NCBI GenBank assembly: GCA_016180135.1
Contig: JACPBV010000015.1
Coordinates: 2,007 to 66,006 of the forward strand
From: Candidatus Woesearchaeota archaeon
Lineage (GTDB): Archaea; Nanobdellota; Nanobdellia; Woesearchaeales; JACPBV01
Direction: 5' to 3'
DNA length: 64,000 bases
The notes beneath the pieces are model-generated. The model had not been told where the DNA came from and ran no database searches. It was given only the letters and a program-made list of their open reading frames with translations. Below, in pieces: positions 5,571 to 38,461 of this stretch. Each line of letters starts with the position of its first letter. Within the stretch, counting starts at the first letter, position 1. Both the position numbers and the translations under genes were made by a program.

Positions 5571-5764
5571 TGTTGTTTCACCTTAAGCCGTGTTTAATGA
5601 CGATAAATGCTCCTGTTAGGAATTTGAGATTTGTTTATAAATGTTACTATTTTTGGAATTGCCGGGCATTCTGAAGGGAGCATGCAGAAAAAAGAGAAGA
5701 GGTTTTTCAAATAAATTCCGTAGCCGCCGCCAAACGCAGAATGGGAAAGATGCTCTCAAAAAAA

Positions 5765-7039
5765 CTAATGAGTGAGCCATGACCATAGCCTGTTCAGGGC
5801 AGAATTTGGAGACGTGCTAATCTGGACGCTTCCGTTTCCGGAGACCCTTGCAGAAGCAGGCCGGAAATTTGCCTGAGGCGCTGAAGACATCACCCAGTTA
5901 AGGGCGCCGCCAGCCCAACTGCTTTTTCGGGATGCTCTATCAGGCGATTCTGCCAAAGTATTTTTTCGGTAAGTCGATTCCTGGATCGCTCCCGCAACAT
6001 CGCCATATCCCAAGCGGTGCAATGATCCAAGAGTCAGTAATTCCTCTTGGCCTTGAATACTCAGGGTGATGCGCCCATGCTCATCGGGGGCATATCTTCC
6101 AAGATAAGCCTGCAGGAATTGTGGAAAATCAATCCTTCTCGACTTAAAATTTCCTATGCTCTCTGTCTTGAGCCGCAACAATGCCTCAAGTGTTCTCAAT
6201 TCATCAACAAAGGGAGAGCCCATTGCGTTTCCGGAATTTCTTTCTATTTGCGCGATATAGTCTCTGAGTATCTTTGATCGTAAAAGATAAGACAGCCCAT
6301 TATCGCCGGAAGCGCCGTCAGTGCCAAAGGTTTTCATCCCTAATGCCAGCTCTTTCCTCCTCTGCCCGTCCCGCAGATCATCAATAAAACTTTCCAGGCT
6401 GCCCGTTGAGGGAATTGTTCTATAGCCGTGTGAAGGGGAGCTTTGAGGGGAGGCTTGAGGAGAGCCTGAAGGTAAGAATTGAGGAGAGCCTGAAGGTAAG
6501 AATTGAGGAGAGCCCGAAGATGAGCCTGAAGCATAGGCTCGAGAATTATCAGCAGGAGTATGCTGTTCCCTAACTTTTTGCAGCGATTCAATCTTCCGCT
6601 TCATCAAAGATTTTACATAAGCAAAATTTTGTGGTTTCAGATCCGCATTATCATAAAGATAATTTTCTTTTCCGGCTTTTGCTGCATAGCTTTTTTCGAC
6701 GGCATCAACTTTTTTCAATGTTTCTTCAAGAAAACCGATTGATTTATCCGAGGATTGGAAGTGTTCAGAAGCCAAAATCTTTGCTGCCCTGGCCAGCATC
6801 GCTCTTTCGTCAGAAATATACGCAGAAGGCTCTTTGATTTCCTTCTCTTCATACCCCAGCCGAGCTGCCCGTCTCTTCGCATACTCCCTGAAAGTGCTAG
6901 CATCACGATAGACGCCGGAAAACATCAGAAGGAGTCCGGCTGCGCTGTCGAGCGGCTTGTTCTGCCTTGGAGAGTATTGTGAAGAAGCCTCATCTTTCAG
7001 GGAATTTATCCCGCCAGGCAACGTTGCCGCTATTGCCAT
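5765..7039 (-). CDS. Hypothetical protein with Ser/Pro-rich linker
   Basis: 424-aa ORF; in-frame 24-bp tandem repeat (SGSPQFLP) at 6455-6514. Confidence 0.7.
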   Translation of the reverse strand: MAIAATLPGGINSLKDEASSQYSPRQNKPLDSAAGLLLMFSGVYRDASTFREYAKRRAARLGYEEKEIKEPSAYISDERAMLARAAKILASEHFQSSDKSIGFLEETLKKVDAVEKSYAAKAGKENYLYDNADLKPQNFAYVKSLMKRKIESLQKVREQHTPADNSRAYASGSSSGSPQFLPSGSPQFLPSGSPQASPQSSPSHGYRTIPSTGSLESFIDDLRDGQRRKELALGMKTFGTDGASGDNGLSYLLRSKILRDYIAQIERNSGNAMGSPFVDELRTLEALLRLKTESIGNFKSRRIDFPQFLQAYLGRYAPDEHGRITLSIQGQEELLTLGSLHRLGYGDVAGAIQESTYRKNTLAESPDRASRKSSWAGGALNWVMSSAPQANFRPASARVSGNGSVQISTSPNSALNRLWSWLTH

Positions 7040-31234: not shown

Positions 31235-32959
31235 TCAATCCTTCAGCAGCACTTCGATAATCTTTGCAAAAGCCGGCCTGGTGATAAAGACTCCGATGGT
31301 GACACCGATGATGGTTGTCAGCGCAAAACCCTTGAGCAGCCCTGCTCCTGCAAAAAGCAAAGGCGCCATCGCCGCAGTTGTAGTCAGGTAAGCCCCCATG
31401 ATAATAAAAAATGCGCCCTGGACGCGCTCTTTCCAGTTGAAGATTCTCTTCACCTCTCCCCTCAAAGTTTCGTCAGAAATAACAATCTGGTGGTCGACTC
31501 CGGTCCCTATCGCGATGATGATTCCTGCTATCGCTGCTAGGTCAAGGTTCCAGCCTATCAGCGACGCGACGCCCAGAAGGATGACAAGCTCAGACAGAGA
31601 GGTAATCACAATAGGGATGGCAACCTGAAGCTTCCGGTATCTGAGGAGGATAAGCAGAGAAACTGCAGCAAGCGCCAAAAGCCCTGAGAACATCGCATTG
31701 TTCAGGAACTCCTTCCCCAGCAGCGGTGAGATGGTGTCTATCTTGACAATATTGAGCTTGTAGGGCAATGACCCTGTGATGAGAATGGTCTGCAGCCGCT
31801 TCATGCTCTGCAGGGAATTGATCGCAGCTTCCTGCTGGGAAATGCCTGCTCCTGATCCTGTGATCTGGATGTTTGTTTCGGCAGACCCCTTGAGCTCTGC
31901 CCCGATCCTGAGAAGGTCAACTTCTTTGTCATCGAGAAAAAGCGCGATGCTTTCGTTGAGATATTGGCTTCTCCCTTCAGACACAACCGAGAGCTTGTCC
32001 GTCACTGAAGCCTGCATCCTCGCAGCTTCCGGCGACAGGATGATGGAGAACCTGAACCTGCAGAACCATTCCTTTCCCGAAGCCTGGCAGCCAACATTGG
32101 GGTCTAAGCCTGCGCAGTCAGGCGTCCTGCAGACAAAGGTGATATCATCCCCGCCGCGAAAAACAGTTGAGTTTCCTACCTTTGCTTCAAACTTTCCCTG
32201 CTTGGCGATGAGCTCTTTGACTTCCTCCTGGGTGGCTCCTGCGATCTCAGCAACAACATACTGGTTCCCCTCAAGGTCCGATGCCTCTCTGATGATCAGG
32301 TCGCTGAGACCGTAGACATTCAGCCTCTCGCTCATCACCGCAATGATGTTCTCAAGCTCATTTTTTGAGATTTTCTTTTCCGGCTGAAGCAATACCCTTG
32401 TCCCCCCTTCGAGGTCAAGCCCTTTCCTAAGGTTGCTTTTCGGCGCCTGATAGACTCTCAGCCCGAGGTCCTCGATGCCTTCACTTATCTCAAGAGTCTT
32501 GGGAACTTCAACCCTTGAAGAGAATGTCTTATTGACGGAAACAAGCGTGCCGTTCCTCGTCTCATTGATTTCCCTCACACCCTCAATAGTGCGCCATTCA
32601 GTCTCATTCAGGACCGTTGTCCGTATTTTCTCCTTGGGCTTTAGATAATACGTTTGTTTGTTTGTTGCGACCTGCACGGTCGAATTCAGCCTGAGTTTTG
32701 AGATTGCTGCATCAAAACTGTCGATATCAATAACCTCCCGGCTGTTGATTGCAGTGATGACCTCCCGGGACATCGGCGGAAGATTCGGCTTTGGGCTCTG
32801 GATGCCTGCAAGATTCGCTGATGAATTTGCGATGACGCTCCTGATAGCAACGCCTTCCCTGACAGGGTTCGGGCGGATAGCGATGAGGGAGAGCACTATC
32901 GCTATAAGGAAGATGATGACCCTGAAGTTGGTGAATATTTTTTTTGCTTTAGGATGCAT
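31235..32959 (-). CDS. secD: Protein translocase subunit SecD
   Basis: GLDLEGG, RLNVYGLSD, GSLP, AIGTGVDHQIVI, LKGFALTTIIG; start likely ATG 32959. Confidence 0.93.
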   Translation of the reverse strand: MHPKAKKIFTNFRVIIFLIAIVLSLIAIRPNPVREGVAIRSVIANSSANLAGIQSPKPNLPPMSREVITAINSREVIDIDSFDAAISKLRLNSTVQVATNKQTYYLKPKEKIRTTVLNETEWRTIEGVREINETRNGTLVSVNKTFSSRVEVPKTLEISEGIEDLGLRVYQAPKSNLRKGLDLEGGTRVLLQPEKKISKNELENIIAVMSERLNVYGLSDLIIREASDLEGNQYVVAEIAGATQEEVKELIAKQGKFEAKVGNSTVFRGGDDITFVCRTPDCAGLDPNVGCQASGKEWFCRFRFSIILSPEAARMQASVTDKLSVVSEGRSQYLNESIALFLDDKEVDLLRIGAELKGSAETNIQITGSGAGISQQEAAINSLQSMKRLQTILITGSLPYKLNIVKIDTISPLLGKEFLNNAMFSGLLALAAVSLLILLRYRKLQVAIPIVITSLSELVILLGVASLIGWNLDLAAIAGIIIAIGTGVDHQIVISDETLRGEVKRIFNWKERVQGAFFIIMGAYLTTTAAMAPLLFAGAGLLKGFALTTIIGVTIGVFITRPAFAKIIEVLLKD

Positions 32960-34166
32960 AGTGATGCGCCTTCCTTTCCTTCCCTTCAGCATAGGACCTG
33001 ATGATCCCGACATTCTGTATCCAGGTAAAGACCGAATCAACAATCATTCCGATAAAGATTATCATGAAAATCTGCTTCATTGCCACAGACTCGGCAAAAA
33101 TAAGCCCGACAAAGACAGCTGTCATGGTTGTCAGCGTCATCATCATCCCAGTCTTTACAGCTCCCCATGTGCGGTCAAAGATAGTTCCCCCTTTCATCTT
33201 GAGGACCCTGGTGTTGAGGAGCATGTCCGTATCGACGCTGTAGCCGGTGAGCATAAGGAACGCTGCGATCCCCGCAGTCGTGAGCTTCATTCCCATAAGG
33301 TTGACGATTGCAAGCGTGACGATGATGTCTGAAAATGCCGCGAGGATGACGGTGATGCCCGGGATGAATGCCCTAAAATATGCAAATACCACAAGGCTCA
33401 TCAGCAGGAACGCGATCCCCAAAGAGACAATTAGCTGCCTGAAGAATGCTGTGCCCAGCGCTGAACCCACAATCTCGACGCTGTAGTCCTCTCCGGCTAA
33501 AGGATAGCCTAAAAATTTTTCAAGGGCAGACAGGAAGCTGTCCATTATTTCTTTGTTAGTCCCGTCAATGTCTGCAACAATCACGACAGCAGACCGCATA
33601 TCCCCGCTGCGCAAGGTATTTGCCCCGGCATCATTCTGCGGAAATGCCTGCCGCAGCGCGGTTTCCAGCGCCCTGAGATCGATGGGCTGCTTGGGAAACA
33701 GTGTCAGGGTGACTCCACCCTTTAAAGAAACATCCTTGTAGAGAAATTCTCCTGTAGCCGCATACTGGTAGCCGATAAGCCCCAATGCGATCAGCGTGAT
33801 GATGATGGGGATTGCCAGCAGTTTTTTGTATTGCTTGTCGTAGAAATCCAGCAGCCGGGCCTTCAGGGTTTTTGTTGGAGAGAAAGATTCAGTGAGGGTT
33901 TCAACAGCCTTTGATTTTTTATGGGCAGCAGATTCCTGTATAGTCTCCTTTTTTTCTGCAGGATGCTTTTCATGCTCCGGTGTTTCCTGATTTTCAGCCG
34001 CACTTCTGCCGATTAACGCAGGCTCGTCATTCCCTTCGCCCTGAAGTTCAGTCGCTGCCTGCTGATTGCCCTCAAGTTCGCTCCCTTCTTCCTGGATGTT
34101 AGAGGTTTCGTTCCCTTCGCCCATTTGGCCATCTTCTTGAGTTTGATTTTTCTGATGCTCTTCCAC
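32949..34166 (-). CDS. secF: Protein translocase subunit SecF with acidic N-terminal extension
   Basis: DVSLKGG, VGSALG, GYSVDTDMLL, TWIQN. Confidence 0.93.
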   Translation of the reverse strand: MEEHQKNQTQEDGQMGEGNETSNIQEEGSELEGNQQAATELQGEGNDEPALIGRSAAENQETPEHEKHPAEKKETIQESAAHKKSKAVETLTESFSPTKTLKARLLDFYDKQYKKLLAIPIIITLIALGLIGYQYAATGEFLYKDVSLKGGVTLTLFPKQPIDLRALETALRQAFPQNDAGANTLRSGDMRSAVVIVADIDGTNKEIMDSFLSALEKFLGYPLAGEDYSVEIVGSALGTAFFRQLIVSLGIAFLLMSLVVFAYFRAFIPGITVILAAFSDIIVTLAIVNLMGMKLTTAGIAAFLMLTGYSVDTDMLLNTRVLKMKGGTIFDRTWGAVKTGMMMTLTTMTAVFVGLIFAESVAMKQIFMIIFIGMIVDSVFTWIQNVGIIRSYAEGKERKAHHYAS

Positions 34167-34370
34167 TATTCTTCCCCCTTCGTAATATATCCTCCAAACC
34201 CCCTAATCTTATCCATCCCATTAATAATACAATCTGCCGATGAGAAGAAAAAAGGGCGGTTAATAAAGGTTACTGATTTAAGTTTACGGGGGAAGGAAGG
34301 AATGCCGGATATGCCTGACATGCCGGATTTCGGATTTTGCCTAAGGGCATTGGATTTGCTCTCGCCCCTT

Positions 34371-34620
34371 AACTCCTCAACGCTCTTAACTTCATCAAGC
34401 GTCAATTCATCCAACTCTTAGGCTGGCTGGCCGATCTCTTTTTCAAGCTCCTTCTTCCAGATTCTTTTTCGGGCTTCTTTTTACAGTTTATTTTTCCAGT
34501 TTCTTTATCAAGATTCCTTTTAGAGTTTCATTTTCAGGCTTCTTTTCAGAGTTTCTTTAATTTTGCCTGCTTGTCAGGATTGTCTAAGTAATCATCATCT
34601 AAATTGATGGAGTGGATTTG
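34371..34620 (-). repeat. Degenerate copy C of R-M-enzyme C-terminal tail repeat
   Basis: Encodes QIHSINLDDDYLDNPDKQAKLKKL...KELEKEIGQPA*ELDELTLDEVKSVEE; 22-bp identity (34561-34582) with 36697-36718. Confidence 0.7.
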
Positions 34621-34621
34621 G

Positions 34622-35485
34622 CTATTTGGTTTTTTTATCATTTGTCTCTTTTCCTATTTTTTTTTTCTTGGTTAAATCCAGGTGATTTTCAGGAGAAACG
34701 ACTTTAATTCCGAATGTTTTTTCTGCATCCTGTCGGGCTCTTCCGGCAACTGTGCCTCCTTCGTTGGCTGCTTCTAATCCTTCTGTAAAACCGCTAACAT
34801 CTTTTTTACGTGTCGCTTCGGTAGTAAGCCGTTCTCCTAACATAGAAAAGATAAGCTCTAAGTCAGTCATATGGTCCCGAAGATTCTGATTTTTGAATTT
34901 TGGATCAAGTCTTTTTATCTCTTTATGCGCTTTAATAGGCACTCCAAAAGTAGCCTGAGAAATTTCATTGGTGAGGATAGAGTATTCACTTTTTTCTTTA
35001 ATCCCTCTTTTCTTCCATTCTTCCGTTAATTCCTGCCTGATGGCGATTCCCCTTAACCGTTTATCAATCCAATCCTTAGGATACCCTTTGAGTTCATAGT
35101 ATTCTTTAGCTCTATCCTGCGCTAATTCGGGATTTTCAATCTCTTGAATGCGTTCATAACCAACTTGTGCCAGCCAGCGCTTGAATGGCTCGGCTTTCTT
35201 GGAGGGAATTGATTGAATGATGCGAAATAATGCTTCTGTATTGGCACAGTCTGTTTCCCTCATTTTGCCATCTTCTGCTGTTAATTTCAATTGTACACAA
35301 ATTGTGTGCAGTTCAATTCCATTATCAGCCTCTCTTGCTTTAAGCATATTCCAATAGTTTCTAGAATTATCGCTATCCGTTAATACGCCAATAACATCTA
35401 TAACCGAAAAAAACCATTCTTCATTATGCCAGATTCTACGAATATTCTTTCCTTCAAAGACGACTAAAGCGTTTTCTGGATTCAT
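34622..35485 (-). CDS. Bro-N domain protein (phage antirepressor-like)
   Basis: FEGKNIRRIW..EEWFFSVIDVI, RIIQSIPSKKAEPFKRWL, NLRDHMTDLELIF; AT-rich. Confidence 0.88.
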   Translation of the reverse strand: MNPENALVVFEGKNIRRIWHNEEWFFSVIDVIGVLTDSDNSRNYWNMLKAREADNGIELHTICVQLKLTAEDGKMRETDCANTEALFRIIQSIPSKKAEPFKRWLAQVGYERIQEIENPELAQDRAKEYYELKGYPKDWIDKRLRGIAIRQELTEEWKKRGIKEKSEYSILTNEISQATFGVPIKAHKEIKRLDPKFKNQNLRDHMTDLELIFSMLGERLTTEATRKKDVSGFTEGLEAANEGGTVAGRARQDAEKTFGIKVVSPENHLDLTKKKKIGKETNDKKTK

Positions 35486-35487
35486 TT

Positions 35488-35569
35488 TCAGTTAAACCCC
35501 TCAACAATCTTAATCTCTTCTGGCGTTAAATCATGCAGCTTATAGACTAACTGGCCAATCTCTTTCTTT
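35488..35569 (-). repeat. Copy B of R-M tail repeat
   Basis: Encodes KKEIGQLVYKLHDLTPEEIKIVEGFN*; 52/57 nt identical (35494-35550) to 36610-36666. Confidence 0.8.
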
Positions 35570-36604
35570 ATTTTCCTTATTTTTGCTCATATCCAATAAA
35601 TTTCTTGATTTCAGCATTAATTTATCAAAATCAGATTCAAATAATCTATCTTGGACTATTCTATATTTCTCAAATTCACTTTCTGCAAATTCTTTTGCGA
35701 TTCTCATTGTTATTTTACCAGCATTTTTTAATATTTCTCTCTCATCAAATTCTAAGAACAAATCAAGCCTTTTTGACCAATCTTCTATAGTCATAGGTAT
35801 TCTTCTCTTTGCTCTTTCTTCTGCTAAATCAAGATATGCGCTTACTATTCTCCCTAATGATTCCAGCTCTTCTTTTGTTAAGTAGTTTTTAGCAATAGAC
35901 ACATCTGTCTTTATTATTTTGCCTTCAGGAGAATTTTTCCATGATGTTAAACCCATATGCTCTCTTTTGCTATTTGCTCTTTTCATGATCAATTCAGGGG
36001 CTGTGTGCCTATGAATTGCATAATGAAGCTTGTTTTGAACTTTTGCGAAGAATTCTTTTGTCGCTTCCGCGTTTTTATCGTAATCTAAGCTTGTTGCATA
36101 AATATCGGTTATTTTTTGGTAGAAATTTCTTTCACTTAATCGTATTTCCCTGATTTCAGCTAAAAGCTCGTCAAAATAATTCTGATTAAGGAAATTTCCG
36201 TTTTCTAATCGTTTTTTGTCTAAAACATATCCTTTTATTGCAAATTGCTTTAAGACTTTAGTTGCCCATATTCTAAACTGTGTTGCTCTTTGTGAATTTA
36301 CCCTATATCCAACAGATATTATCGCATCAAGGTTGTAGAATTTTGTAGCGTACTCTTTCCCATCAGAGGCAGTATGTCGGAAATCCCGACAAGCTGATTT
36401 TTCATCAAGTTCTCCTGTTTTAAATATCTCATTTAGATGCTCGGTTATTGTGCTTCTTCCTTTATCAAATAATTTGGCAATCATTTGTTGAGTAAGCCAA
36501 ACATTTTCGTCTGCATACTTTACTTCAATAGATTCTTCTCCTGCCTGCGCAGTAAATATCAAGAATTCAGCAGTGCTGTTCCTGATTGCTAAATCTTTTT
36601 TCAT
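35540..36604 (-). CDS. Virulence RhuM family protein
   Basis: VWLTQQMIAKLF, YNLDAIISVGYRVNSQRATQFRIWAT, IREIRLSERNFYQKITDIYA, AKNYL; AT-rich. Confidence 0.92.
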   Translation of the reverse strand: MKKDLAIRNSTAEFLIFTAQAGEESIEVKYADENVWLTQQMIAKLFDKGRSTITEHLNEIFKTGELDEKSACRDFRHTASDGKEYATKFYNLDAIISVGYRVNSQRATQFRIWATKVLKQFAIKGYVLDKKRLENGNFLNQNYFDELLAEIREIRLSERNFYQKITDIYATSLDYDKNAEATKEFFAKVQNKLHYAIHRHTAPELIMKRANSKREHMGLTSWKNSPEGKIIKTDVSIAKNYLTKEELESLGRIVSAYLDLAEERAKRRIPMTIEDWSKRLDLFLEFDEREILKNAGKITMRIAKEFAESEFEKYRIVQDRLFESDFDKLMLKSRNLLDMSKNKENKERDWPVSL

Positions 36605-36765
36605 TTTCCAAACTCCTCAACAATCTTAATCTCTTCGGGCGTTAATTCATACAGTTTATAGACTAAAATATCTATCTCTTTTTCCAACTTCTTGACTTTT
36701 GCCTGCTTGTCAGGATTGCCTGATGGATCATCGCCCAAAGTGATGGGAAGAATTTGACCGGCGAT
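36601..36765 (-). repeat. Copy A of R-M tail repeat (orphan gene fragment)
   Basis: Encodes QILPITLGDDPSGNPDKQAKVKKLEKEIDILVYKLYELTPEEIKIVEEFGK*; its TGA overlaps the RhuM ATG. Confidence 0.8.
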
Positions 36766-36793
36766 TTGGGCTAATCCACTTCCGCCGCCGCCT

Positions 36794-38461
36794 TCATTTC
36801 ATCCCCGCCCGTATCAGCCCCAAAAACAGCGGCGCAGGATCTTCAAGATTTGATTTGAACTCAGGATGCGATTGGGTGCCGACAAAGTATTTGTGCTTCG
36901 GCAGCTCCATAAATTCCATCAGCTTTGTGCCGTCTGAGCGCAGATGGAAGCCGGAAAACACAAAGCCCCCTTTCTCCAGCCTCTCGATAAAAAGAGGATT
37001 GACCTCATACCGGTGCCGGTGCCTTTCGACAACAATAATATCTTTCGGGCCGAATTCACCAAGCCTGAAAGCCTGCTGCCTGTCTTTCCTCAGCTCTTTC
37101 ACCCTGTCAGCATCTCTCTCGATGCGCTTTTCCTTATACAGCTTCTGGATGACTGAGCCTTCCTGAAGCGCAGCTGCATACGCCCCTAATCTCATCGTCC
37201 CCCCGAGCTGGCTCTGCTCAAGAATTTTTTTCTGGCTTTCAAGGATGGTGATGACCGGATGCTCCGTCTTGGGATCAATTTCAGTCGTATTCGCATCACC
37301 CATCCCGCATACGTTTCTTGCATACTCGATGGTCGCAAGCTGCATGCCATAGCACAATCCCAGATAAGGGATGTCATGCTCACGGGCGTATTGGATTGCC
37401 TTTATCTTTCCTTCAACCCCTGAACTCCCGAATCCACCCGGAACGATGATGCCGTTGAACTGGGAAAGCTCCTTAAGCTCTTCGGGATGCTTCTCAAACC
37501 TCTTGGAATCAACCCAGGTAATCTTAAGCCTCACCCTGAGGTTTGCAGCGGAATGGGCCAATGCCTGATTGATGGACATATACGAATCGGCAAGGCTGTA
37601 ATCCCCGATATCAACATATTTCCCGACGATAGCGATGTTGACTTCTTTCTTCCCGTCAACCAATGCCTCCACCAGGACTTTCCAGCTCTTCCATTCAGGC
37701 TCCTTTTTCGCCTTGACCTTCAGCTCTTCAAGCAGCTTCTTTCCCAATCCCTCTTTTTCCAAATCAAGCGGAATCCTGTAGATAGTATCGATGTCGGGCT
37801 CCGAGATGATATTTTCCCTCCGGATATTTGCCATCATCTCTATCTTTTTCTTCCTCACGTCATCCAGCGGCTTTTTTGCCCGGCAGATGATGAAGTCCGG
37901 CCAGATGCCGTTTTCGCTCAGCAGCCTGATGGCCTGCTGCGTGGGCTTCGTCTTCATCTCCTCAATGTGGGAAGGGATGGGAAGATAGGTAATCAAAATA
38001 TAGGTGATGTTGTCTTTGCCAATCTCACGCTCCAGCGATTTCAGCGCAAAAAGATAAGCGATATTCTCAAAATCGCCGATAGTCCCGCCGACCTCGACAA
38101 GGCAGAAATCAAACCCTTCCGCAGCAGCCTTTATCCTCCTTTTGATCTCATCAGGCACATGGGGGATGAACTGGACCGTCTCGCCAAGGTATTTCCCGGC
38201 CCGCTCGTTGTCGATGATAGTCTTGTATATCTGGCCCGTGGTGATGTTGTTCCTTTTAGGGATGTCCGTGCAGAAGAACCTCTCATAATTCCCCAGGTCC
38301 TGGTCAATCTCCCCGCCATCGTCGGTAACCCAGACTTCGCCATGCTCAGTCGGCCTTAATGTGCCAGCATCATAGTTCATGTAAGGGTCAATCTTGACAG
38401 CAGTGACCGAAAAGCCGTATTCCTGAAGTATCTTGCCGACAGAAGCAGTCGTGACCCCTTT
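36794..38461 (-). CDS. pyrG: CTP synthase; first ~15-17 codons including the start codon are missing
   Basis: KGVTTASVG..KIDPYMN, HGEVWVTDDG, KTKPTQ, PGGFG, GLCYGMQ, ERHRHRYE, HPE; frame open to 38467, then in-frame TGA. Confidence 0.93.
   Translation of the reverse strand, partial: KGVTTASVGKILQEYGFSVTAVKIDPYMNYDAGTLRPTEHGEVWVTDDGGEIDQDLGNYERFFCTDIPKRNNITTGQIYKTIIDNERAGKYLGETVQFIPHVPDEIKRRIKAAAEGFDFCLVEVGGTIGDFENIAYLFALKSLEREIGKDNITYILITYLPIPSHIEEMKTKPTQQAIRLLSENGIWPDFIICRAKKPLDDVRKKKIEMMANIRRENIISEPDIDTIYRIPLDLEKEGLGKKLLEELKVKAKKEPEWKSWKVLVEALVDGKKEVNIAIVGKYVDIGDYSLADSYMSINQALAHSAANLRVRLKITWVDSKRFEKHPEELKELSQFNGIIVPGGFGSSGVEGKIKAIQYAREHDIPYLGLCYGMQLATIEYARNVCGMGDANTTEIDPKTEHPVITILESQKKILEQSQLGGTMRLGAYAAALQEGSVIQKLYKEKRIERDADRVKELRKDRQQAFRLGEFGPKDIIVVERHRHRYEVNPLFIERLEKGGFVFSGFHLRSDGTKLMEFMELPKHKYFVGTQSHPEFKSNLEDPAPLFLGLIRAGMK

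Follow-up and report, generated by a model that had tools for sequence, protein, structure and literature searches.

Duplicated 3' tails of predicted type IIG restriction-modification genes alternate with accessory genes in an island between pyrG and secF of a Woesearchaeota archaeon

The window analyzed here, a stretch of 64,000 nt from contig JACPBV010000015.1 (positions 2,007 to 66,006, forward strand) of a Candidatus Woesearchaeota archaeon (assembly GCA_016180135.1), holds an AT-rich island of ~2.4 kb between the host genes pyrG and secF. Letters, open reading frames (ORFs) and translations show on the minus strand the order tail A, RhuM gene, tail B, Bro-N gene, tail C. Judged by their protein matches, the tails repeat the final 30-56 codons of type IIG restriction-modification (R-M) genes found in DPANN-type archaea. 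The layout recurs in other loci, its junctions are regular, and a same-genus genome differs at the same site by a presence or absence of cargo that is bounded by tails. The island is on balance probably an orphaned, tail-linked cassette array: insertions would have made the tail duplications, which afterwards served as direct repeats for homologous recombination. We infer both that the duplications arose at insertion and that the recombination was homologous.

Identity of the tails and anatomy of the island

Tail A obtained 409 protein matches at E<=0.01 among 529 candidates. Among the 120 matches listed, the core motif lies at most 15 residues from the C-terminus in 115, and 69 are at least 900 aa long. 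The precomputed Pfam domains of the tail-matching proteins are N6_Mtase, Eco57I, TaqI_C and MmeI_Mtase. Two representatives, P0009 (E 5e-196) and the R-M gene of locus L005 (E 8e-153), match the PADLOC model REase_MTase_IIG; the type IIG assignment is made at the level of hidden Markov models (HMMs), and endonuclease activity is thus predicted only. Where a source is given, the proteins belong mostly to Woesearchaeota, Nanoarchaeota, Altiarchaeales and other small-genome lineages. An earlier reading of the letters without database searches, here called the sequence-only reading, had taken the peptide for the end of type IIG R-M proteins, and the matches, the C-terminal position of the motif and the PADLOC model bear this out. 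The collection also includes 106 short tail-matching proteins of 30-97 aa, many of them 54-56 aa long with the same start. On the DNA level, tail A is closest (84%) to the tail that ends a full-length R-M gene in L189.

Within this genome, tail copies are confined to the three in the window. A full type IIG gene was not found in the assembly, which comprises 44 contigs and is 88% complete, so that absence elsewhere in the genome is not proven; only a weak Eco57I match in a 210-aa frame is present on another contig. Profile searches of the window's contig (C40) gave no match to Eco57I (PF07669) and none to Phage_integrase (PF00589), other recombinase families not having been searched. Matches to PF00589 identified two tyrosine recombinase genes in the genome, on contigs C24 and C21.

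The tails form a three-copy direct repeat family (34370-34462, 35494-35586 and 36610-36702), with 63% and 80% identity to the reference copy in the repeat search, which also reported an A/C repeat of 80 nt at 75% identity. In their last 57 nt, tails A and B are identical at 52 positions, and tails A and C have an exact 22-mer in common. Tail C is decayed, with in-frame stops in its translation and a 13-nt tandem array at 34437-34558. The 52/57 identity, the 22-mer and the decay of tail C had been noted in the sequence-only reading, as had the tail-gene-tail order between pyrG and secF; direct reading of the letters, the ORFs, the translations and the Pfam matches reproduces both. Tail B contains a premature TGA at 35488-35490, the original TGA being located at 35482-35484. 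The last ~14 codons of the RhuM gene overlap tail B in a different reading frame. The insert measures 2.2 kb and consists of RhuM, tail B and Bro-N only, with no mobility gene among them. With a guanine-plus-cytosine (GC) content of 0.29-0.41 vs ~0.45-0.53 in the flanks, the island is of foreign origin. Independent Logan contigs from three sequencing runs, X4 (perhaps the sample of origin), X5 and X6, span both C/Bro-N/B/RhuM and RhuM/A/pyrG with zero mismatches.

The RhuM protein matches PF13310 with 366 bits (cut-off 33.7) and the PADLOC candidate family PDC-S05 with E 2.5e-154. For the Bro-N protein, the values are 51.2 bits for PF02498 (cut-off 25.6) and E 7e-118 for PDC-S13, while the match to the NCBIfam DinD equivalog is weak (23.5 bits, below the cut-off of 242). 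The DUF1016/YhcG gene of related arrays matches PDC-S02. NCBIfam assigned no family to RhuM, to DUF1016 or to several of the unknown cargo genes. According to the available part of the source, the PDC families were built on genes found inside BREX, DISARM and type I R-M loci (Payne et al., 2024; 10.1101/2024.01.29.577857). RhuM/dinD and DUF1016 genes have been recorded between type I core genes in the accessible text of a second study (PMC9881135). The cargo likely acts as back-up or add-on defence.

Table 1. Features of the pyrG-secF region (window coordinates)
Feature	Position	Strand	Assignment and remarks
pyrG (CTP synthase)	36794-38380	minus	Pfam CTP_synth_N + GATase; host gene, upstream border of the island
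Tail A	36601-36771	minus	56 intact codons ending EEFGK + stop; tail HMM positions 6-61, E 4e-27
RhuM gene, cargo 1	35540-36604	minus	Pfam PF13310, E 9e-110
Tail B	35482-35580	minus	partial, tail HMM positions 29-61; no start codon
Bro-N gene, cargo 2, DinD-like C-terminal half	34622-35485	minus	Pfam PF02498, E 2e-13
Tail C	34371-34620	minus	decayed full-type tail; begins 2 nt past the Bro-N stop
secF	32949-34166	minus	Pfam SecD_SecF_C; host gene, downstream border of the island

Several side observations concern these features. The 13-nt unit in tail C is derived from the K-K-L-E-K-E codons of the tail. The repeat search listed 6 overlapping 57-nt copies at 13-nt spacing, and ~9 units are counted by eye; the same-genus genome G401 has fewer. 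Because the period is not a multiple of three, the array looks like slippage after the coding constraint had been lost. Chimeric ORFs were observed in P0004, P0013 and P0074, in which the first 60-75 residues of another protein are joined to an R-M tail or methylase half, and in L006 (6868-7302), where a chimeric 145-aa frame ends in an R-M tail. The N-terminal part of all four is presumably the N-terminus of a PLD-type helicase, and they look like deletion derivatives of a helicase-plus-methylase operon. In two Bro-N/DinD-like cargo genes (L199 3606-4457 and L204 1236-2102), ~250 residues align with the PADLOC type I specificity-subunit model PDLC03083 (717 positions; E 4e-53 and 1e-46, respectively). 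Fusions of a Bro-N/DinD-like domain to HsdS seem to exist.

The neighboring host genes have peculiarities of their own. The first ~100 residues of SecF (window 33860-34166) form an acidic low-complexity extension. It is unaligned in most family relatives, whose alignments begin at residues 77-108, and only G401 aligns from residue 1. In the C-terminal part of pyrG (window 36797-37396), order-level matches split into query residues 1-92 and 121-200, which suggests a ~30-residue insertion in CTP synthase common to this family.

Variation at the site, recurrence and kinship of the tails

In G401 (contig C1), the pyrG 3' end, with 39 of 39 residues identical to the window's, is followed by one tail and then by secF; RhuM and Bro-N are both missing. 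This tail matches tail A in its 5' flank and tail C (34392-34481) in its 3' part, the latter at 96.7% identity. In the DNA alignment, it carries the in-frame stop of tail C and a shorter 13-nt array. Since one hybrid tail without cargo occupies the same site, gain or loss at pyrG-secF is, on this alignment, bounded by tails. Variable cargo at this position, which the sequence-only reading had named as a point to check, is thereby documented. A joined form, in which 34481 is connected to 36695 through 12 letters, is present beside the array form in contigs of X5 (depth 15.7) and X6 (2.8). Among 14 loci from other relatives, five have pyrG followed by secF without tail or island, and in the remaining nine no secF was present within the ~1.5 kb fetched. 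Identities of pyrG relatives are 57-63% when the C-terminal 200 aa are the query and 65-71% when the whole protein is compared. A second empty-site comparison around G229, with the flanking ligase as query, gave no result; the closest orthologue has 73% identity and lies in a locus that ends ~0.8 kb past the gene.

Two further elements were seen at the G401 site. The tail (L025 ~5640-5860) is interrupted by ~110 nt with inverted-repeat ends, and a second palindromic AT-rich element precedes secF. Both look like small insertions of the miniature inverted-repeat transposable element type.

A profile built from 26 tails detected 98 tail places in 73 of the 401 genomes of the order, counts that include the unpublished genomes G360 and G557; no single conclusion depends on these two, or on G244 and G411. 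The tail stands at the end of frames of at least 700 aa in 46 places, in frames of 200-699 aa in 11 and in frames of less than 200 aa in 41. Besides the genome studied here, five of the 401 genomes have at least two same-strand tails within 4 kb (6 loci). At least two same-strand tails, with varied cargo, were found in nine loci (L005, L009, L029, L095, L123, L196, L198, L199 and L200), and arrays exist in four tail subfamilies. In L005, a 935-aa R-M gene is followed by a zinc-finger ORF, a second tail, the genes for SEC-C, WYL and Bro-N proteins, a third tail and a PD-(D/E)XK gene. L009 lacks an R-M body and holds a tail, YhcG/DUF1016, a tail, an RQC-like gene and a PRiA4_ORF3 gene. In L029, an unrelated host ORF of 162 aa (MBF1-like, judged by eye only) is followed by a partial tail, DUF1016, a 55-aa tail ORF, a Bro-N gene 81% identical to the window's and a 62-aa tail ORF. 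L123, on a contig binned to Methanosarcinaceae, starts with a tail and continues with RhuM, a partial tail, Bro-N, a tail, a broken Bro-N and a last tail; RhuM, tail and Bro-N are arranged as in the window. Four tails were counted in L095, and two each in L196, L198, L199 and L200. The sequence-only reading stood or fell with two points, the match of the peptide to R-M C-termini and the existence of other tail-gene-tail arrays with other cargo. The peptide matches, such arrays exist, and their cargo varies.

The junctions between tails and genes follow few patterns. The motifs GAGGAG (36613-36618, tail A) and GAGGGG (35497-35502, tail B) are located 8-11 nt upstream of the next ATG; the sequence-only reading had named both as Shine-Dalgarno sequences. 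Its description of tail B can be refined by the premature TGA. The TGA of tail A overlaps the RhuM ATG and the original TGA of tail B overlaps the Bro-N ATG, both within AAATGA. Among tails having a downstream ORF, the tail stop is overlapped by the next start in four bases (ATGA; GTGA in two) in 28 of 38 cases (15/21, 5/7 and 8/10), vs 19 of 102 generic ORF pairs from the same material. Downstream tail copies begin near profile positions 4-7 or ~24-40. Two different cargo genes of L029 share the terminal ATGAATAG, and the ATG of the tail ORF overlaps the cargo stop. A start of the form M-x(1-3)-QILSIT is found in 18 of 96 short database proteins, and ten have another common start. The RhuM/tail junction of the window recurs in L110. 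With these signals, the tail would drive the expression of the next gene.

Tails of one locus tend to be kin. Of 15 tails from multi-tail loci, 13 are closest in DNA to another tail of their own locus. When six full-length R-M genes are compared pairwise, DNA similarity extends over the first 1.6-2.3 kb but not into the recognition domain; 12 of the 15 pairs are similar again over the last 98-224 nt. L190 and L191 (G137:C6 and G240:C27) have 92% identity across 2.3 kb and 91% across the final 174 nt, with ~1 kb between these stretches unaligned, which indicates a recent replacement of the recognition domain. Similar flanks around a dissimilar recognition domain are what replacement of that domain produces, the tail serving as 3' homology block. 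The sequence-only reading had proposed the R-M 3' end as a recombination handle for capturing genes. The part on recombination agrees with the role of the tail around swapped domains; capture through the tail would go beyond what was observed.

Origin of the array and rival explanations

According to the favored explanation, type IIG R-M genes of donor lineages would end in a conserved tail of ~55 codons, the last codons of which would provide a ribosome-binding site and the TGA of which would overlap the ATG of a co-oriented accessory gene. Genes for RhuM, Bro-N/DinD-like, YhcG/DUF1016, SEC-C and other proteins would have been added at the R-M 3' end. Each addition would duplicate 30-56 tail codons and leave the upstream frame whole, and each newcomer would receive the same ribosome-binding site and ATGA junction. 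The tail copies would be kept for the ribosome-binding site and the restart that they provide. Homologous recombination between copies would delete cassettes and leave a solo tail, for which a dedicated recombinase is unneeded. Cassettes might also be swapped or re-inserted wherever a similar tail exists. As the source of the duplication, homologous integration of a tail-bearing circle or an ends-in fragment may be considered, or insertion with long target duplication. The array in the window would have lost its R-M gene, or never had one at pyrG-secF.

An extended version, possible but more doubtful, regards the tail as a self-regenerating landing pad. DNA consisting of tail plus gene would integrate at similar tails and re-create the pad, which would permit unlimited stacking and offer a ready ribosome-binding site and restart codon. 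If this were true, tail-plus-gene units would circulate among small-genome archaea, one array being binned to Methanosarcinaceae. In function, the pad would correspond to an integron while working by homology, and it would be a mechanism attaching defence genes to R-M genes.

Several observations weigh against the explanation by tail duplication and homologous recombination. The alignment of the genome studied here (G000) with G401 is a mosaic, which fits a deletion in G401 by recombination of A with C as well as an insertion in G000 at a solo tail. The flanks of the joined form in X5 and X6 are ~10% diverged and represent a sister population, not excision within a strain. The two exceptions to same-locus kinship are tails A and B of the window, which are not mutual nearest relatives. 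No excised circle was shown in the Logan contigs, which are not raw reads; the only candidate is an ambiguous joint, not used as evidence. The named array loci are metagenome contigs or metagenome-assembled genomes. Shine-Dalgarno use in this genome has only modest support, with 10 of 47 starts vs 554 of 6000 background positions. Tails were expected around most close relatives of the RhuM and Bro-N genes. This expectation was rejected, as they are present in 5 of 80 Bro-N loci and 2 of 80 RhuM loci, together 7 of 160 cargo-first loci. In a quick tree, fit for coarse points only, tail-flanked Bro-N genes are interspersed among tail-less copies. Finally, direct repeats flank 18 of 154 assessable cargo loci, and most of them are not R-M tails.

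The last observations lead to the strongest rival, in which the cargo itself drives insertion. Roving RhuM/Bro-N units would duplicate 30-170 nt of their target, the tail being merely a tolerated or selected site with no role in recombination, where insertion keeps the R-M gene whole and gives expression. The frequency of flanking repeats speaks for it, as only 5 of 343 other ORFs of the same loci have them (odds ratio 8.9, Fisher p 2e-6, with related loci not independent; score threshold >=22, background at most 17.5). Among the non-tail repeats are one of 33 nt, exact and coding, one of 123 nt within a gene and one formed by the 5' end of a downstream gene, and some occur in bacterial contigs (Bacteroidota, Patescibacteria). 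Near-identical Bro-N genes are found in unrelated contexts: a block of ORF81 plus Bro-N follows a tail (L198), a tail and a membrane ORF (L062, L068) or unrelated DNA (L075, 99% identity), with the breakpoint at the ATG in each context. Long target duplication is known for R-M units, often across start or stop sites, in the available part of the source (PMC2853133). Non-tail repeats and varied contexts imply that cargo also moves by routes not needing the tail, which would be a favored landing site, not the sole one. Taken alone, however, cargo-driven insertion is unlikely. It leaves unexplained the solo hybrid tail of G401, the two discrete classes of tail borders with their conserved junction sequences, and the similarity of same-locus tails in four subfamilies. 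It is compatible with the favored explanation and could be its origin step.

Non-tail direct repeats of 33-123 nt were recorded around RhuM or Bro-N genes at L030, L040, L044, L046, L047, L085, L088 and L091, and also at L109, L113, L118, L141, L147, L151, L155 and L163. Some are located inside host genes, and their frequency is ~8-fold that around the other ORFs of these loci.

Independent decay is still less probable. Three tandem R-M operons with accessory genes would have lost their bodies by deletion and kept the 3' ends for their translation signals. Deletion derivatives do exist (P0004, P0013, P0074 and the 145-aa frame in L006), the short open frames below 200 aa account for 41 of the 98 tail places, and tail C is visibly decayed. 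Scattered breakpoints would be left by such a process, but internal tails have discrete 5' borders (HMM positions 4-7 or ~24-40). They also have common junctions, such as the two recurrent starts of short proteins and the cargo pair of L029, and no trace of a recognition domain or methylase is present between cargo and tail in the arrays read. The common discrete borders, together with the mutual nearness of same-locus tails (13/15), make independent decay unlikely.

The sequence-only reading had also suggested an integron-like system. Here, a recombinase encoded elsewhere would recognize a site in the tail and excise or integrate circles of cargo plus tail. Cassettes that are co-oriented, promoterless-looking and precisely joined would suit such a system, as would varying cargo at one site and the two tyrosine recombinase genes elsewhere in the genome. 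One contig joint of X6 reads from tail A back to tail C (36642 to 34555). It is weak, with a depth of 3.3, a 41-nt side, unresolved letters between and 85% likeness, and may belong to an R-M tail of another organism. PF00589 matches are missing from the window's contig, and no recombinase was seen in the read parts of array loci (Pfam, chosen ORFs only). An attC-like structure was rejected, as the DNA folds of the tails show no stable hairpin. The fold z-scores of tails A and B on both strands are -1.0, -0.9, +1.3 and +1.0, and those of L029 -2.1 and -2.4; the repeat search found no inverted repeats within the window's tails. Furthermore, downstream tail copies start at differing positions of the tail, and four diverged subfamilies all form arrays. 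With no PF00589 recombinase on the contig, no attC-like fold, variable repeat borders and no excised circle shown, the integron-type mechanism is very unlikely.

The least probable alternative, a functional small protein of ~55 aa (e.g. an adaptor mimicking the C-terminal helices of R-M proteins, with arrays as operons of cargo plus adaptor), draws on the intact 55- and 62-aa tail ORFs of L029, each with an ATG overlapping the preceding gene's stop, on the 106 short tail proteins, whose predicted ORFs are an ascertainment-biased sample, and on the alignment of the type I specificity model with Bro-N/DinD-like proteins as a hint of a link to specificity modules, but many internal tails are partial and without a start, and non-synonymous changes between A and B are about as frequent as synonymous ones. 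Such a mini-protein may be possible in L029 but apparently not in the window, where tail B lacks a start and has a premature stop and tail C is decayed.

Comparison with known systems

Insertion with long target duplication of R-M gene units was reportedly described by Nobusato and colleagues in 2000. The available part of a later study reports R-M gene units flanked by direct repeats >30 bp, which occur once at the empty site; its criteria are an insert <20 kb, no mobility gene and homologues of both R and M, and the mechanism is left unexplained there (Furuta, Abe and Kobayashi, 2010; PMC2853133). The island is alike in its flanking repeats >30 bp (tails A and C), in the single hybrid copy of G401, and in an insert of 2.2 kb with foreign GC content and without a mobility gene. 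Repeats that often span stop or start sites, as far as the available text of that study goes, are a further likeness. Unlike those units, the inserts of the island are single accessory genes, without R and M homologues. The same coding element, the R-M 3' tail, is duplicated repeatedly, insertions are stacked, and start and stop overlap as ATGA at almost every upstream junction.

Integrons have been reported in Archaea, according to the part of the source available (10.1101/2022.02.06.479319). Like integrons, tail arrays comprise co-oriented single-gene cassettes parted by a repeated element, with contents varying between relatives and expression probably depending on the upstream context. In contrast to integrons, they have no linked IntI-type recombinase, PF00589 matches being off-contig only. 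The tail repeat is a coding-derived direct repeat with a variable start and no attC-like fold, and neither attI nor Pc is known.

Accessory or candidate defence genes embedded in R-M, BREX and DISARM loci have been described in the available portions of two sources (10.1101/2024.01.29.577857; PMC9881135, with PrrC in EcoprrI cited there). The same families, RhuM, DinD/Bro-N-like and DUF1016 (PDC-S05, PDC-S13 and PDC-S02), are concerned here, oriented as the R-M gene. In those portions, the embedded genes are placed between the genes of a multi-gene system, whereas here they stand behind a single-chain type IIG gene or without any R-M gene. Duplicated gene ends or a mechanism of embedding are not described in the text available; embedding is explained by the general idea of a 'genomic sink' in the accessible part of the former source (10.1101/2024.01.29.577857).

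Tail arrays offer a concrete, testable anatomy for the clustering of defence genes. The newcomer is placed exactly at the R-M stop codon, with the last 30-56 codons duplicated behind it, and the tail copies then would permit loss, as in the solo tail, and probably exchange. If the mechanism is true, it would explain how defence repertoires are remodeled in very small archaeal genomes with few classical mobile elements. It would account for orphan R-M C-terminal fragments as common small ORFs in metagenomes, exemplified by the tail places in frames below 200 aa, and for the wide travel of the RhuM, Bro-N/DinD-like and DUF1016 families.

Swapping of target recognition domains ('domain movement') has been described for type IIG and type I specificity genes (PMC2853133, available part). 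The conserved 3' tail likewise is a downstream homology block, but unrelated whole genes stand between the tails here, not alternative recognition domains. The shufflons of phase-variable R-M systems differ in the same respect; moreover, tail repeats are direct and the contig carries no PF00589 recombinase. In solo long terminal repeat (LTR) formation, recombination between flanking direct repeats removes the interior and one hybrid repeat remains. Tandem islands at the 3' ends of tRNA genes duplicate the 3' end and thereby keep the target gene whole. Unlike both, tail arrays have no integrase or retroelement, and the cargo is a single gene of ~1 kb.

Gene families, R-M association, long target duplication and recognition-domain swapping are already known. 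The literature searched, with partial coverage, gave no description of duplicated R-M tails separating cargo genes. What appears to be new in print is the stacking of single accessory genes behind duplicates of one coding tail, each with an ATGA junction. Should the proposed mechanism hold, insertion with long target duplication would extend from R-M units to satellites of R-M units.

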